Sequence record: PZ445443.1
Direction: 5' to 3' (one strand)
DNA length: 64,000 nucleotides
Origin: a phage
Below are positions 20,326 through 30,808 of the stretch, piece by piece. A model generated the notes under the pieces. The model saw only the letters and a program-made list of their open reading frames with translations, did not search any database and was not told the DNA's origin. How positions within the stretch are numbered: position 1 is the first letter of the stretch; each line of letters begins with the position of its first letter. The position numbers and the translations under genes were made by a program.

Positions 20326-20378
20326 AAAACTCAAGGGGCGAGATGACTTGCCCCACACAAAACAAAGAGGATAACATC

Positions 20379-25835: not shown

Positions 25836-25903
25836 TACAACAAGTTACATGGTCAGGGGGGCAATAAAGCCCCTTGATCGCATGAAAATTATGCTATCTC
25901 TGG

Positions 25904-25932
25904 TTGACAGGGATCGGCAGTTTTGCTATATT
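25904..25932 (+). promoter_or_regulatory. sigma70-like promoter
   Basis: TTGACA, 17 bp spacer, TATATT. Confidence 0.55.
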
Positions 25933-25981
25933 CTTTTTTAAAGGGAAGTTGTAAGAAAATTAACTAAGAGGTAAAAACACC

Positions 25982-26401
25982 ATGAATATTAAATCTGATA
26001 ATCCGGCATATAGCTTTGATAACGCTTTTTGTCACGGTCCGGCGGCGAAAGGTTTTGAAATTGATGGTAAACTAGTTATTGTCAATGTTGACGGGGAAGA
26101 GGTTGCAGTGTATCCGGTGGCAGACGTTAAAAGCCGTTTACAATGCCGCATCGATGTTACCGCATATCAGCTTGATCCGGTCCGCGTAGTCTCCCTGGTC
26201 CTGGAGGAAGAAATCAAAGCAATGCACCACAGCAATAAGTTTATCGGTGACGCGCAAGATAATATGAAGGTATGCCGCTATAAAGTTAATGAAGTGCTTA
26301 AAGAATATGGATTTAAGGATCTGATGATCAAACGTGATGAAAAATTTCGTTATCGTAACGACCTGGCAAATCGAATCTATGAAATATACGAATCATTATA
26401 A
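25982..26401 (+). CDS. hypothetical protein
   Basis: ATG after TAAGAGGTAAA RBS; last gene of forward block. Confidence 0.55.
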   Translation: MNIKSDNPAYSFDNAFCHGPAAKGFEIDGKLVIVNVDGEEVAVYPVADVKSRLQCRIDVTAYQLDPVRVVSLVLEEEIKAMHHSNKFIGDAQDNMKVCRYKVNEVLKEYGFKDLMIKRDEKFRYRNDLANRIYEIYESL

Positions 26402-26420
26402 TTTTTTAACTGAATTATCA

Positions 26421-26444
26421 AGGGGCTTAGGCCCCTTTCTTTTT
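26421..26444 (+). terminator. rho-independent terminator
   Basis: AGGGGC-TTAG-GCCCCT hairpin followed by TTCTTTTT. Confidence 0.7.
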
Positions 26445-27052
26445 GTCTGCTCTTCCCCTACCATAAACGGCCATACATGGCAAGTGGAATAATTGACGAG
26501 CCATCAATCCCACACACTGTACAAATATACATGTAAAATAACTATTGCATAACTTTTCATTGTGTGGTAGCAGGGCCATTTTTACACGTTTTTCCTTCCA
26601 AAATTGCACGTAATGCAGCATTTGCACAAAATTTAACCTGATGCATATCTTCAATAGCTTGTCAACAACTAAAAATCTTTATAAGTCATACACTTACATA
26701 ACTACAAAAGCGTTTTCTACGTGAAAAATCGAGTATAACTATAGCCGCCAGACCTCAGAATTTACGTACGCTCGACATTCTATAGCCTGCTAAGCATTTA
26801 TTCCAACCATAGAATAACGGAATAGTCAATACCTGCATAAAATAATTATTCGTGTAAACTGCATAACATAAATCGGCCCAGGTGTCAACATTTTTCGTAA
26901 ACAGTCCGAAATTATCACTATGAGTTATCATAAACAGGGAAATCTTTAGTCGTCTAATGTTTACTGTACATTACTATACTGACTGGAATCATTAGATGAC
27001 TAAGAGAAAGATAAGAAATAATTAACAATACAATTATTTTATCTGTAACAAT

Positions 27053-27322
27053 AAGGCAACTATGCAAACGAATGGCATGGCGCGACGGAGTCGCGACATA
27101 ATATAAAAGCAGTAACCATCACCCCCGTGATAGTTTGTCTGCAAACTATTAATCAGATCATAGTTGCCTTGTATTTAGTTAATCATGACATAACAAGCAA
27201 GGCAACTATAGATCTGCTAATAGTTGCCCTGCTTTTATATTATGTCATAGAAACACCCGAAGGGGTGACCAAAGGTCACCTGGCATGGCCAGTGAAAGAT
27301 TATTAACTTGCTAATAGTTATC
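27053..27322. repeat. array of 11 bp motif AAGGCAACTAT in both orientations (about 5 copies)
   Basis: AAGGCAACTAT at 27053 and 27199; reverse complement ATAGTTGCCTT at 27160; close variants at 27220 and 27314; flanked by duplicated GCAAACGAATGGCATGGC (27064, 27325). Confidence 0.6.
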
Positions 27323-27354
27323 ATGCAAACGAATGGCATGGCTGATTATCGGTG

Positions 27355-27440
27355 TGTAAACAGTCAATCATGTAAATGGTTAGCATGTGAACAATCAGGA
27401 ATGTAAACAATCCAGTGTGTAAACTAATAGGTGTGTAAAA
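27355..27440. repeat. six phased TGTAAAC-like repeats at about 16 bp spacing
   Basis: TGTAAAC 27355, TGTAAAT 27371, TGTGAAC 27386, TGTAAAC 27402, TGTAAAC 27418, TGTAAAA 27434. Confidence 0.6.
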
Positions 27441-28029
27441 GTGTCATGTTGTGTCAGTTAGGTCACATTATGTCATATTGTGTCAGACAAGTTTTTCTCC
27501 TCTTTGTCAAGTGCTGCATGAAAAATTTACAATCTGGTATGGTAGCATTTTTGCGGCCCTGTTTACATTCAGGGGTGTATGTATAATCCTTGTTGTGTGG
27601 GCGTTTAGACGTCTGGACGGTCAGAAGTCTGCAGGTTAATATCTAATCTATTGGCTGCTAACTATATCCCACACAAATAGTAAGAAATATGATTGTTATA
27701 TGCGTAAACTGTAACTCATGTTATCAATCCCTGTATGTATCGCCAGTGGTGCGCATAATGGGTATTATGTTAAATTGCCCGTAATGATAAAGGTTCTCAC
27801 AATGATAGGTATTCTCATTCACCCCCACAAAATAGATTGCAAATGTTGTGCCACTGTGTGAACGGCCTAGCCTATTAATTTGCCTCACTGCCTCGATATT
27901 TGAGAATTGTTATAAGAATGAGAAGTATTCCCATTTCGTCCGCCTGGCAGCACTCCTGTAGGTCAGGTCAAAATCGTGGTAGAACTGGACCTGTTCAGAT
28001 ATTTCTGGCTGACTCTTCAGGTCTGTGTG

Positions 28030-28555
28030 GGAAAAGCCAACCTCTCCGGCGGGGCAGGGGATAGGTCAATTAAAAAATTTACGTGGTGTATGAAGCGCTC
28101 TTCAGGTAAGGCAGGTATTATGGGATGAAACCCTCTTCAGGCAATGATATTTGTGGGTGTGATATTTGCTGGAAAGCCAGATATGACGGGACTCCCGGCG
28201 GGGCAGGGGTGGTACAGACAGGGAAAATATGAAGGATGTGGTTGGGTAGATTGATCAGACAGGTAGAGTATGGAATATGTTACAAGTATGTTAAATATGG
28301 AGGTTGAATATCTGTAGGATTTGTGTGTAAAATCAAAGACTTAAGTGGTGTTGTGGTATTTTCTATAAATAATTCAAGTTTAATAGGTGATATTTGTCTC
28401 TATCCGCTTTGTGTGGTAAACAGATTCAGATGAGATTGGTTTACAAGTGTATACATAATATACAAATTAAAGATACAAGAAACCCCCCTCCCCCTTCGGC
28501 TACCATTCACCTTTTCCTCTGACTGGTACTTAAACACTTATTCAGACTCTTCAGG
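28030..28555. repeat. dispersed direct repeats CTCTTCAGG (x4) and CCGGCGGGGCAGGGG (x2)
   Basis: CTCTTCAGG at 28030, 28115, 28150, 28547; CCGGCGGGGCAGGGG at 28063 and 28212, each preceded by AAAGCCA. Confidence 0.55.
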
Positions 28556-28905
28556 TTATCACCTATATATCATATGGCAGTGACTGGTGTCCTCCGGCCC
28601 CTCTTTCGTCACCCGTCCGCTTCGCCATGCTAATGCCATAGCCAATGGTTCGGTTGTTCACCCTGTTCACTCAGGTGTATCTCCATACCCCTTCAAACCG
28701 AAGAGAACAGAAAACCCGAATTACTCGGTAAAAGAAAAGAGAAGAACTTAATTTTATCAGGATAGGCAAGAATGTCAAGGCATGACTGCTCACTAAACAA
28801 GCAAACAGTCATGTGTGGGAGGTAAGTGATTGTGGTGGTAGGAAATTTAGTTGAAAGATGTGTTATAGGTGCTTCCAGCACTTTAGCCGGGCAGCTAATT
28901 GTGTG

Positions 28906-29121
28906 TCAGTCCAGCGGTTCATCCTCTACTTCACTGAAATCAATGTTCATGGTCTCCTCCCAACCATCGATCTCAGCACAAGAGTGGAGTTCTTTAGGGT
29001 TTACTCCCAAAGCCTCAGCAACAGAGTCTATATTTAACACCTCTGGCAGGTATGATTCATCAAATTCAAGGTAAATCAGGCCACGAGTGTTGTCAGCCCC
29101 ACCAAATATTTCTATCTTCAT
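28906..29121 (-). CDS. hypothetical small acidic protein (MKIEI-type N-terminus)
   Basis: ATG after AGGAGA RBS; last gene of reverse block. Confidence 0.5.
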   Translation of the reverse strand: MKIEIFGGADNTRGLIYLEFDESYLPEVLNIDSVAEALGVNPKELHSCAEIDGWEETMNIDFSEVEDEPLD

Positions 29122-29242
29122 GAAATCTCCTCTGGAAATGAGAGTGTGAACAGGGTTTTATGCGTTCCAATACGCTGGAATTATACACGTTTGCCTCTTC
29201 AGGCCATGCTTTAGCATGAGGAACCTGTGTGGGCTCGGTGCT

Positions 29243-29656
29243 TCATAGTCTACCACCTCTGAACTCTTCGTGCTCAGGCATAATAGAGAACCAGATATCT
29301 ACGATGTCTCCCCACGTTAGGTCATCAGCCTCAGGATCTACCTGGAGCGAAGATGGAGAATCTTCAGAATCGAAGTTTTCCTCTTTCACTGGCTCAGCCA
29401 AGGGACATATAGCCACTCCTTTGGATGTCTCTTCAGATGCATGTGTGTTTATCATGTTCCACCCGTGAGTATTCCGGCAACAGCCACTATGGACGTAATG
29501 ATCATCAGAATCACCACCAAAACCTCTGACAATGTTTTCATTGTGTATCCCATATTCTCCAAACGATGTGTGGATACTATCACTGGAGCGACAATGTGTC
29601 AACAGAAACGCCGCGAGGGTTTGGTTAAAATCCGAGCGTATGGTGATTTGGGTCAA
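29243..29656 (-). CDS. hypothetical protein (start uncertain)
   Basis: Co-oriented ORF; acidic C-terminal half; alternative ATG at 29455 would give 70 aa. Confidence 0.35.
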   Translation of the reverse strand: MTQITIRSDFNQTLAAFLLTHCRSSDSIHTSFGEYGIHNENIVRGFGGDSDDHYVHSGCCRNTHGWNMINTHASEETSKGVAICPLAEPVKEENFDSEDSPSSLQVDPEADDLTWGDIVDIWFSIMPEHEEFRGGRL

Positions 29657-29815
29657 AACGGACGTGCGTTCTCGCTACGCTCGAAATATAGAGTTGTTTG
29701 CAGGAAGCTCTTAAACGCTCTGTAATGAGATTAACTACCCAAGGTATGCAATCGTGCACCAGATAAAGAAAAGGACGCCACAGAGCGTCCTAGGTGTCTT
29801 AAATTTGATATTTTG

Positions 29816-30502: not shown

Positions 30503-30808
30503 TTATTCTACAGAGCGTTTGAACAGAATGTCTGCCTCAGACATGTGCTCAACCTCTTCTTCAATCTTAGCGCGACGTTTTTCAGCTTCGTAGCGGATAT
30601 CAAACTCTGTAGCCACCAAAGATTTGATGAATTTAGGAGAATACAGATGATCCTGCTTCTCAACAAGAATGATATCCTTGATGGCATCTTTCAAATCTTT
30701 AATCTGAAGCTGGAGTTCCACCAGTTCTTCAATTGTTTTGCGAAGGCGATCACGTTCTGCAGTGTCAGAAGGAAGAGAGGTGAACAGTTCAACTTTAGAT
30801 TTAGCCAT
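30503..30808 (-). CDS. hypothetical coiled-coil protein
   Basis: ATG after AAGGAG RBS. Confidence 0.5.
   Translation of the reverse strand: MAKSKVELFTSLPSDTAERDRLRKTIEELVELQLQIKDLKDAIKDIILVEKQDHLYSPKFIKSLVATEFDIRYEAEKRRAKIEEEVEHMSEADILFKRSVE

Follow-up and report, generated by a model that had tools for sequence, protein, structure and literature searches.

The gene-free, repeat-rich region between converging gene blocks of a Vequintavirus very probably holds the joined ends of its terminally repetitious chromosome

The 64,000 nucleotides analysed here (record PZ445443.1; "the window" throughout) belong to a Vequintavirus, an rV5-like myophage of E. coli with a linear chromosome, and the roughly 2.4 kb in which its two gene blocks converge are very probably the joined ends, or concatemer junction, of the linear, terminally repetitious Vequintavirus genome. 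In close relatives, the virion chromosome starts and finishes with a 459-bp sequence that corresponds to window positions 27486-27944, and the approximately 1 kb on either side of this repeat consists of unique non-coding sequence immediately inside the physical ends; these ends were determined in relatives 96% identical to the window phage, not in the window isolate. The region is an expected and largely documented feature and not a new kind of locus: two groups have already reported the 458/459-bp repeat, and a non-coding box has already been drawn for rV5.

A sequence-only reading had described positions 26445-28905 as gene-free and rich in repeats. This description holds, every feature that it listed lies where it was placed, and the region is unique in the window. 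Its edges and its first segment are as follows.

25982-26401, plus strand: 139-aa ORF, the last of the forward block; its stop codon precedes the terminator
26420-26444, plus strand: intrinsic terminator at the end of the forward block, AAGGGGCTTAGGCCCCTT, with a seven-pair GC-rich stem and a T-tract
26445-27040, unstranded: segment A, an AT-rich non-coding spacer (GC about 0.38), unique DNA just inside the virion end at 27944
28906-29121, minus strand: 71-aa gene, the last of the reverse block and the region's right edge, intact in 17 of 18 relatives (codon-position counts 10:5:32)

The terminator proposed to close the forward block is confirmed. When ORFs of at least 45 aa are counted on each block's own strand, the uncovered gap runs from 26493 to 28905 (2413 nt) and the second-largest gap in the 64 kb is only 282 nt, which bears out the claim that an unusual amount of non-coding DNA is spent here; outside the gap, 91% of the window is covered by ORFs. 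The repeats and palindromes are far above chance (20-nt and 15-nt direct and 18-nt inverted repeats, all perfect) and the C6TC5 tract is present at 28483-28494. That the region is non-coding is likewise upheld by 18 related genomes, in which the 18 of its ORFs compared vary at about 1:1:1 by codon position and are mostly interrupted; in the flanking genes, variable sites are 4- to 10-fold in excess at third positions (e.g. 11:6:61). The ORFs of segment A are broken in 17-18 of the 18 relatives, and its mean pairwise divergence is 0.086, compared with 0.10-0.16 at the third codon positions of neighbouring genes.

The region is matched at 88-96% identity by 121 phage records, all of them Vequintavirus. 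Two outcomes had been named as refuting the sequence-only reading, conserved coding genes within the region and its absence or variability in close relatives without phenotype; no such genes were found, and 99 of the 121 relatives keep it at full length. In rV5 the same locus is 104014-106572 (full-length alignment of about 90%), where Kropinski et al. 2013 (PMC3606486) already draw the "non-coding" box. With respect to more distant homologues, blastn in distant mode returned Vequintavirus only, exact-word scans of IMG/VR and a metagenome collection returned near-identical phages only, and a search for host mimicry against 5,426 E. coli genomes gave only marginal 40-52-nt matches. The flanking 71-aa protein is confined to Vequintavirus, and around the more widely conserved 101-aa protein (30503-30808), a putative DNA-binding protein, the genes of PVP-SE1 and Mydo are ordered differently and do not converge close by.

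Among the functions that had been suggested for the region, a packaging or terminus site is the one that is supported, the 459-bp Vequintavirus repeat mapping inside it.

27486-27944, unstranded: direct terminal repeat (DTR), 459 bp, single copy in the window; mature left end 27486 and right end 27944 in window orientation
27945-27956, unstranded: near-invariant 12 nt outside the right DTR edge, TGGCAGCACTCC, common to all 19 genomes, rare single-genome changes aside

Window 27486-27944 aligns with the terminal repeat_region of Gotham (MT682716) over all 459 nt, gapless and with 95.9% identity, and bases 1-459 of the Gotham record are identical to its last 459 bases (a repeat_region is annotated at both ends). 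The records of EdH4, HdK5 and ECP2309 also hold two copies of the repeat, one per record end. Besides Gotham, at least seven records from other laboratories (EdH4, HdK5, ECP2309, bov11CS3, Pr121LW, ECP2303 and YN3) begin or end exactly at the equivalents of 27486/27944; the fixed ends at the same nucleotide come from eight records and at least four laboratories. In the CM1 assembly there is a break exactly at 27944, after which the sequence resumes 63 nt ahead of 27486. It is because the Gotham DTR maps here and these other records end here that we read the region as the collapsed junction of the virion DNA ends, the single mid-contig copy of the repeat being present because the assembly collapsed and re-opened the genome.

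The published repeat lengths are 458 bp (PMC6563267) and 459 bp (PMC7471380), both studies giving a fixed start of packaging, and in the latter study all Gotham virions share one specific packaging start. The 458/459-bp repeats annotated in EdH4, HdK5 and Gotham belong to the same locus as the non-coding box of rV5, and the repeat coordinates transfer directly. The rV5 paper (PMC3606486) gives the box no function and treats the change in GC skew there as an effect of transcription, and the papers that report the repeat (PMC6563267, PMC7471380) do not describe its place relative to the box or its surroundings. We found no paper that assigns the region a function or reports transcriptomics for the genus.

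The DTR itself diverges by 0.061 among the relatives. Both of its edges lie in invariant sequence with hypervariable DNA on the outer side: on the left the invariant sequence starts at 27481, and on the right an insertion hot spot directly follows 27956, with differing 25-50-nt insertions in most genomes. This pattern suggests that the invariant 8-15 nt at each edge may be cut or recognition sites. By analogy with T7-type phages with exact ends, the terminase would cut at 27485/27486 and 27944/27945, the repeat would be duplicated to give two copies per packaged genome, and after injection the repeats would allow a circle or a concatemer to form. Some observations weigh against the joined-ends reading: a 2026 Vequintavirus paper infers headful packaging with partial permutation (PhageTerm), yet reports a DTR too; circular permutation has been described for the sister genera PVP-SE1 and phiTE; and the T7-type mechanism is an analogy.

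Two repeat arrays fill the DNA immediately to the left of the DTR.

27346-27440, plus strand: array of approximately 16-nt units with the core (T/C)GT(A/G)AAC, copy number varying between isolates
27441-27485, plus strand: tandem GTGTCATATT array, period 10, 4.6 copies (Tandem Repeats Finder), its last base abutting the DTR

The rV5 counterpart of the first array has a period of 16 (Tandem Repeats Finder), and no other part of the region varies as much as this array (divergence 0.338, with gaps in 52% of its columns). Copy number is variable in the 10-nt array as well. Judging from conservation patterns, the phased 10-nt and 16-nt arrays at the left DTR edge could be accessory sites for protein binding or DNA bending.

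The T7-type chromosome is one of the closest parallels. There too, a short sequence-defined repeat stands at both virion ends (160 bp in T7, about 235 bp in phiYeO3-12/AP5 and 193 bp in phiEco32/SU10), a collapsed assembly gives a single repeat copy, and short repeat arrays and a nearby hairpin-forming sequence accompany the repeat. The repeats of T7-like phages are likewise surrounded by about 1 kb without genes; AP5, for example, has its repeat at 1-235 and its first gene from 1017. The SRL/SRR repeat arrays of T7 were reportedly described by Dunn and Studier in 1983. A hairpin intermediate of T7 is cited in PMC4281155. The differences are these: the window phage is a myovirus of 137 kb and not a podovirus; transcription of the two neighbouring gene blocks runs toward the ends; the conserved promoter described below points outward, whereas early promoters in T7 are directed inward; no promoter for a phage RNA polymerase is involved; and there is no sequence similarity.

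Further to the left lies a palindromic unit bracketed by direct repeats.

27062-27081, plus strand: left copy of a 20-nt direct repeat, ATGCAAACGAATGGCATGGC, a perfect match with 27323-27342; the two copies bracket the unit
27323-27342, plus strand: right copy of this repeat, the end point of a deletion in FV3
27096-27246, unstranded: 150-bp imperfect palindrome (cruciform or hairpin) with two 28-bp dyads
27141-27168, unstranded: dyad 1, GCAAACTAT-N10-ATAGTTGCC, inside the palindrome
27201-27228, unstranded: dyad 2, GGCAACTAT-N10-ATAGTTGCC, inside the palindrome

The palindrome, which includes a perfect 18-nt inverted repeat (27095/27229), folds far better than shuffled sequence (z = -8.9 as DNA and -7.8 as RNA) and is symmetric on both strands. 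Its divergence is 0.024, about 5-fold under the neutral proxy, and rV5 and LL12, which carry a 33-nt insertion in the apical loop, keep the arms. The window has four copies of ATAGTTGCC, all of them in the region and in or beside the palindrome; a uniform distribution would put 0.2 copies in the region. These conservation patterns are consistent with a protein-binding or DNA-bending accessory site. The FV3 record, however, has a single copy of the 20-nt repeat and lacks 27082-27322 between the copies; the unit therefore cannot be essential, provided that this record is correct.

In lambda cos and SPP1 pac, a cut site is accompanied by nearby binding repeats for the small terminase subunit. The region resembles these sites in its invariant (here putative) cut site, its repeated and partly inverted short motifs and its phased arrays within a few hundred bp, and their overall size of 200-300 bp is close to that of either the palindromic unit or the conserved block considered next. 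It differs from them in having exact repeats instead of cohesive or headful ends, and in a palindromic unit that is dispensable in FV3.

To the right of the DTR, the most conserved part of the region stands downstream of a predicted promoter that faces the repeat.

28483-28744, minus strand: block G, a near-invariant 262-nt element that extends from the predicted transcription start to the C6TC5 tract
28751-28778, minus strand: predicted sigma-70-type promoter, TTGACA-16-TGaTAAAAT, pointing toward the DTR
28781-28815, unstranded: perfect 8-bp inverted repeat CATGACTG...CAGTCATG, upstream of the promoter
28050-28400, minus strand: C-rich, G-poor, unstructured tract (in the minus-strand reading) downstream of block G, a candidate Rho loading site

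Block G diverges by 0.011, about 10-fold under the neutral proxy, with approximately 11 variable columns in 19 genomes, and is at least 95% identical across all 118 phage records that contain it. Its promoter is the best match in our promoter scan (11/12, with an extended -10 TG). The hexamers, a spacing within 16-18 nt and a conservation that exceeds that of the surroundings (variation in 1 of the 12 hexamer columns but in 10 of the 22 columns of spacer and discriminator) together give 28751-28778 the predicted character of a sigma-70 promoter. For windows covering the inverted repeat just upstream, the minus-strand fold has a z of -3.8 to -4.1. A second possible promoter inside the DTR (27504-27533) was discarded, the key last T of its -10 element being changed in at least 10 of 19 genomes.

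In the C-rich tract, 28201-28400 on the plus strand contains 13 C and 58 G, a GC skew of +0.63; no other 200-nt stretch of the 64 kb is as extreme, and the adjacent block has the opposite sign (mean -0.15, sd 0.11). No tract in the window is poorer in C. On the minus strand, all 78-nt segments with starts between 28050 and 28300 have a C/G ratio of 2.1 to 6.4, and folding energies are near zero throughout the tract. In composition, and in its position downstream of a transcription unit, 28050-28400 thus has the features predicted of a rut site of a Rho-dependent terminator. The conservation patterns suggest that the promoter at 28778-28751 makes a non-coding transcript, block G, running toward the terminus. 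Rho might then halt both this transcript and read-through from the reverse block between 28400 and 28050; we propose that transcription would therefore be kept off the packaging site.

Could block G act as an RNA? Promoter-linked and near-invariant as it is, it could. The structured RNA locus of the sequence-only reading, as it had been put, is not supported: Rfam 15 (including ToxI and pRNA) gives zero hits at gathering score over the whole window, and the sole strongly structured element is the symmetric DNA palindrome. Even at E values of up to 10, the Rfam search produced only four miRNA-precursor chance hits on hairpins, and no tRNA or tmRNA was found. That block G (28744 to about 28483, minus strand) is nevertheless a functional non-coding RNA gene, its product acting on the host or on packaging and its sequence not serving as a DNA site, we hold to be possible but doubtful. 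The near-invariance of block G sets in no more than a few bases from the predicted transcription start and stops about 260 nt further on; the promoter hexamers are kept and the spacer and discriminator vary; there is no conserved ORF inside (two genomes lack the ATG of the 18-codon ORF, the 28-aa ORF has its ATG changed in most, and the remaining small ORFs have no codon periodicity); and the predicted fold agrees with one compensatory pair (28617/28648) and with one change from G-U to A-U. However, the fold of the whole transcript is no better than that of shuffles (z = -0.55), it matches no Rfam family, the pair predicted at 28647 is broken in six genomes, the genus offers no outside relatives for covariation, and the invariance fits a DNA-level site equally well, for example a pac element bound by the terminase. 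As a recognition element for the cut itself, block G would on the other hand be far away, 540-800 bp from the nearest repeat edge. Read as a non-coding RNA gene, it would be the first strong promoter-driven product beside a genome end.

The packaging RNA of phi29 is encoded beside the left genome end and transcribed toward that end. Block G resembles it in being driven by a (predicted) promoter, non-coding, highly conserved and no more than about 1.3 kb from a genome end toward which it is directed. Given that block G has neither an Rfam pRNA match nor a significant fold, and that phi29 belongs to an unrelated phage family with a different replication mode, the parallel is a lead only. A bolder proposal, and a rather improbable one, is that block G is a previously undescribed, genus-wide phage non-coding RNA, transcribed from the strongest host-type promoter beside a genome end and acting in trans, either in genome-end handling or packaging, as in phi29, or in host takeover or anti-defence, the palindrome with its ATAGTTGCC dyads being a platform for a dedicated phage DNA-binding protein. 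Another rV5-like phage, phiTE, carries an antitoxin-mimic RNA in an intergenic locus, but this pseudo-ToxI is not syntenic, being situated between the tRNA genes and the terminase and not at the convergence point, and Tandem Repeats Finder detects no ToxI-like tandem repeat of period 36 here.

A replication origin, possibly in addition to the termini, is unlikely. It might take the form of initiator-binding iterons in the palindrome with its ATAGTTGCC dyads, or of a transcription-activated origin made up of the promoter and block G, as in T7 and T4. The four exact copies of ATAGTTGCC are confined to 27055-27228 and form two 28-bp dyads in a strongly constrained palindrome adjoined by AT-rich DNA, and a strong conserved promoter abuts a near-invariant block. 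Cumulative GC skew, the check that the sequence-only reading had called for, does peak in the region, but the turn simply goes along with the change in the direction of transcription, a conclusion that the rV5 authors reached too (PMC3606486). Moreover, the ATAGTTGCC half-sites are inverted and are not direct iterons, the region contains no perfect DnaA box TTATCCACA and only two relaxed matches, no initiator gene is adjacent, and FV3, which is without the whole palindromic unit, indicates that the unit is not kept in all members. An arrangement of three or more direct iterons beside an AT-rich unwinding element and/or DnaA boxes was not found in the region. With respect to the second form, RNA from the promoter would be C-rich, and a persistent R-loop primer is consequently disfavoured.

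It is very unlikely that the palindromic unit (27082-27322) is just a passenger near the terminus, a small element that is mobile or derived from an insertion. It is flanked by perfect 20-nt direct repeats and the loss in FV3 lies exactly between them, but recombination between the repeats accounts equally well for that deletion. Furthermore, 20 bp is long for a target-site duplication, the unit is about 5-fold more conserved than neutral sites, and it occurs once per genome, at this site only and in Vequintavirus only (117 records, 118 places). Finally, that the region is decayed coding DNA, or a neutral spacer separating convergent transcription units, is scarcely credible: segments A and F do diverge at 0.075-0.086, not far under the third-position proxy, and some records annotate small ORFs here, but a constraint of 5- to 10-fold acts on block G, the palindrome and the repeat edges, the physical ends map inside the region, and its ORFs lack codon periodicity and are broken in relatives.

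The reading as joined ends has practical consequences. Over 100 Vequintavirus records in GenBank begin at an arbitrary point, which leaves the true chromosome ends hidden mid-record, and several annotate spurious small genes across the region; placing the ends at 27486 and 27944 would give a consistent genome orientation and a cleaner annotation. The rV5-like phages are widely used as therapy and biocontrol candidates and are now genetically tractable, EdH4 being an editable model (PMC9712115). For them, the map supplies candidates for elements that would act in cis in packaging, replication and end protection, namely the invariant edges of the repeat, the phased arrays, the dispensable dyad palindrome, the promoter-linked block and the rut-like tract. 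Builders of vectors would probably need about 0.5-2.5 kb of this DNA in cis for packaging.

One last repeat family lies between the right DTR edge and block G.

28006-28209, plus strand: two-copy module (...GGAAA(A)GCCA...CCGGCGGGGCAGGGG), the copies 149 nt apart, carrying three of the region's four CTCTTCAGG motifs

Outside the region, copies of CTCTTCAGG sit within genes and resemble chance coding matches. Chi sites are not enriched (none in the region, one in the window). The module includes the perfect 15-nt direct repeat at 28046/28195, and its first copy differs between isolates.

The stretch between the converging forward and reverse gene blocks (26445-28905) had been proposed, in a sequence-only reading, to be a replication origin, a packaging/terminus region or a structured non-coding RNA locus. 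Its description as ~2.5 kb of gene-free, repeat-dense DNA is confirmed by the ORF gap, the repeats and the codon-position counts, and the terminator, the reverse-block edge and the C6TC5 tract noted in that reading are all present:

25982-26401, + strand, last forward-block ORF (139 aa)
26420-26444, + strand, canonical intrinsic terminator closing the forward block
28483-28494, C6TC5 tract
28906-29121, - strand, last reverse-block ORF (71 aa)

When only block-strand ORFs of 45 aa or more are counted, 2,413 nt (26493-28905) are left uncovered, and no other gap in the 64 kb exceeds 282 nt. Repeats are far above chance, with perfect direct repeats of 20 and 15 nt and an inverted one of 18 nt, likewise perfect; several motif families are found within the region only. 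When the window was aligned with 18 relatives and variable sites were counted by codon position, the five flanking genes had the third-position excess of coding sequence (6:5:28, 8:4:44, 11:6:61, 10:5:32 and 21:14:61), with reading frames intact in 14-17 of the 18 genomes. Not one of the 18 ORFs inside the region had codon periodicity and the majority were interrupted in these relatives; no conserved protein-coding gene was found. Neither a tRNA nor, at gathering score, an Rfam family turned up, and Rfam searches at E-values up to 10 gave only chance hairpin matches.

A search of the phage collection with the 2,461-nt region yielded 121 matching records (88-96% identity), all from the genus Vequintavirus (rV5-like E. 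coli myophages), and 99 of them carry it at full length. Most have no annotation under the matching stretch, and a few have isolated small "hypothetical proteins" whose position differs from record to record. No homologues were found beyond Vequintavirus in the phage, IMG/VR, metagenome or E. coli collections, and covariation is consequently unable to decide the RNA question. Nineteen "UNVERIFIED Campylobacter phage" records (MG0656xx), 90-96% identical to this region of the E. coli Vequintavirus, are probably contaminants or have mislabelled hosts.

In the rV5 genome paper this stretch appears as an ORF-free grey "non-coding" box, and its authors explained the change in GC skew by transcription changing direction there (PMC3606486). 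Short exact terminal repeats of 458 bp have been described for EdH4 and HdK5 (PMC6563267), and 459-bp repeats for Gotham, with a single specific packaging start common to all virions (PMC7471380). The Gotham record has the repeat annotated at bases 1-459 and again, in an identical copy, at the last 459 bases; it aligns end-to-end and ungapped, in reverse orientation and at 95.9% identity, with 27486-27944 of the window. Searches with this 459-nt sequence placed it at positions 1-459, plus a second copy, in EdH4, HdK5, ECP2309 and Gotham, at the start of the Pr121LW record and at the end of that of ECP2303. In the full-region search the HdK5, bov11CS3 and Gotham records begin at the equivalent of 27944 and YN3 ends at that of 27486, while the CM1 assembly reaches exactly 27944 and restarts 63 nt before 27486, which looks like the tandem artefact expected where an assembler joins two repeat-bearing ends. 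Since the repeat stands at both ends of relatives' records and maps to 27486-27944, the window shows the collapsed junction. With the ends carried over from these 96% identical relatives, the region is assigned as the physical genome ends, that is, the terminus and packaging region, the correct candidate among the three. In the orientation of the window, the mature chromosome would start at 27486, run rightward through the reverse block, around the genome and back via the forward block, and end at 27944. Transcription of the two terminal gene blocks is directed toward the chromosome ends.

The other two candidates fared less well. Iteron arrangement, DnaA boxes and dispensability all tell against a replication origin, and as a structured RNA the region belongs to none of the Rfam, ToxI or pRNA classes. 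With regard to the mode of packaging, the relatives have both the identical ends and the fixed end positions of phages with exact direct terminal repeats (DTR). One recent paper inferred headful packaging for a Vequintavirus from PhageTerm, and reported a DTR as well. The sister genera are described as permuted and differ in gene order around a shared marker gene, so the terminus arrangement may be genus-specific.

As the terminal region of an exact-DTR phage, it functionally resembles that of the T7 group, in which the repeats serve concatemer formation and have to be duplicated in a multi-step cleavage with a hairpin intermediate (PMC4281155). T7-like genomes also keep ~1 kb gene-free around their repeats (in the AP5 record the repeat is at 1-235, the first gene starts from 1017 and the last ends ~260 nt before the right repeat), which puts the amount of non-coding DNA here within the expected range. 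Unlike T7, however, this is a 137-kb myovirus, its end-proximal blocks and conserved promoter all face outward, and the sequences are not similar.

The gene content beside the terminus (25850-26414) is variable, as the 139-aa forward-block gene is missing from 4 of the 18 relatives, FV3 among them. Just inside the reverse block, a 137-aa TTG-start ORF (29243-29656, - strand) is intact in only 1 of 18 relatives and lacks codon periodicity (57:50:62); it is unlikely to be a gene. Different small genes are annotated across 29150-29800 in other records. The I29 (ON286975) and CM1 (MK962749) records have ~0.55-0.6 kb of extra sequence at the region, a duplication joined via a perfect fold-back (CAGGTAGAGTATGCATACTCTACCTG) in the former and a tandem terminal-repeat copy plus 63 nt in the latter; both look like assembly artefacts at genome ends.

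Constraint within the region is uneven, as judged by mean pairwise divergence against a neutral yardstick of 0.10-0.16 (third codon positions of the neighbouring genes):

26445-27040, segment A, AT-rich spacer, 0.086
27096-27246, palindrome core, 0.024
27346-27477, repeat arrays, 0.338
27486-27944, terminal repeat, 0.061
28001-28482, segment F, 0.075
28483-28744, - strand, block G, 0.011

Both DTR edges are invariant (27481-27495 on the left; 27937-27944 on the right, with near-invariance extending to 27956), and the region's most plastic DNA lies immediately outside each of them. The left side has an array of ~16-nt GT(A/G)AAC units, isolate-dependent in copy number, and then 4.6 copies of GTGTCATATT in a period-10 array reaching up to 27485, the base that precedes the DTR; on the right, there is an insertion hot spot immediately after 27956. 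Invariant edges with phased, expandable repeats are the pattern expected of terminase recognition or DNA-bending sites, and we infer such a role from the sequence. Inside the DTR, at 27594-27675, two back-to-back copies of CCCACACA (27594 on the - strand, 27668 on the + strand) surround a 66-nt segment containing the palindrome AGACGTCT (27607-27614).

To the left of the arrays, perfect 20-nt direct repeats (27062 and 27323) bracket a palindromic unit, whose core (27096-27246) is predicted to fold back on itself into an imperfect hairpin or cruciform of considerable length (z = -8.9 for DNA and -7.8 for RNA, the strands being equal). It has two 28-bp dyads, GCAAACTAT-N10-ATAGTTGCC and GGCAACTAT-N10-ATAGTTGCC; exact ATAGTTGCC has four copies in the 64-kb window, all within 27055-27228. 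Because a 33-nt insertion in the apical loop (rV5 and LL12) spares the arms, one double change keeps pairing and single changes have no strand preference, the pattern points to a DNA-level or protein-binding element, not a strand-specific RNA. The unit is kept in 117 other records, and the FV3 record has a single copy of the 20-nt repeat and no intervening sequence; it is thus beneficial yet apparently dispensable, unless the FV3 record is artefactual. A candidate binder of the dyad sites is a 101-aa protein (30503-30808, - strand), 100% conserved in the genus, and 42-60% identical across Vequintavirinae, which some records call a transcriptional regulator and others a dsDNA-binding protein. 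Its gene has a different neighbourhood in PVP-SE1 and Mydo, showing large-scale rearrangement between genera. Only some isolates have a 55-nt module at 27248-27303 with three small hairpins (CACCCGAAGGGGTG, GGTGACCAAAGGTCACC and CTGGCATGGCCAG), which matches ~13.6-kb E. coli plasmids (88.5% over 52 nt, E = 2e-7).

Just upstream of block G is the region's best sigma-70 match:

28778-28751, - strand, TTGACA (28778-28773), 16-nt spacer, TGaTAAAAT (-10 at 28756-28751)

Across 19 genomes, 1 of its 12 hexamer columns is variable versus 10 of 22 in the spacer and discriminator, and none of the nine changes in the most divergent relative falls in the hexamers. Near-invariance starts at ~28744, the predicted start site, and runs ~260 nt to the C6TC5 tract with ~11 variable columns; all 118 records containing block G have at least 95% identity there. 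Block G contains no conserved ORF; it would serve as a DNA site or else encode a non-coding RNA. Its predicted fold accommodates one compensatory pair (28617/28648) and one change from G-U to A-U, but a polymorphism at 28647 disrupts a predicted pair in six genomes, and the whole transcript does not fold better than shuffles (z = -0.55). The coincidence of the conserved promoter with the block slightly favours a transcribed element over a DNA site.

In the direction in which this putative transcript would run, block G is followed by a tract (28201-28400) with 13 C versus 58 G on the + strand, a GC skew of +0.63 that is the most extreme among 200-nt windows of the 64 kb; the adjacent block has the opposite sign. 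Its minus-strand RNA would be unstructured, rich in C and poor in G, a composition like that of Rho loading sites. After the last gene of the reverse block there is no convincing intrinsic terminator. Judging from composition, the tract may stop both the promoter-G transcript and reverse-block read-through short of the DTR.

The literature and GenBank already contain both the non-coding box and the 458/459-bp repeat, so the feature as such is known. We found no earlier description of where in the box the repeat sits, of how constraint is distributed, of the end points of the FV3 deletion, of the arrays next to the left DTR edge, or of an invariant block that is linked to a promoter and has a rut-like tract after it; these are experimental leads and not established functions.

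Finally, TGTGTGGG (CCCACACA on the sense strand) has 13 copies in the window versus 2.0 expected, a number reached in 0 of 100 shuffles. The sites include 7346, 20352, 25207, 26509, 27594, 27668, 28024, 28812, 29226, 33032 and 40452; they are oriented mostly along local transcription, and five are in the non-coding region. The copies at 20352 and 25207 come right after a GC-rich hairpin and ahead of a gene's ribosome-binding site, and in this group of phages the sequence may serve as a regulatory or 5'-UTR motif.
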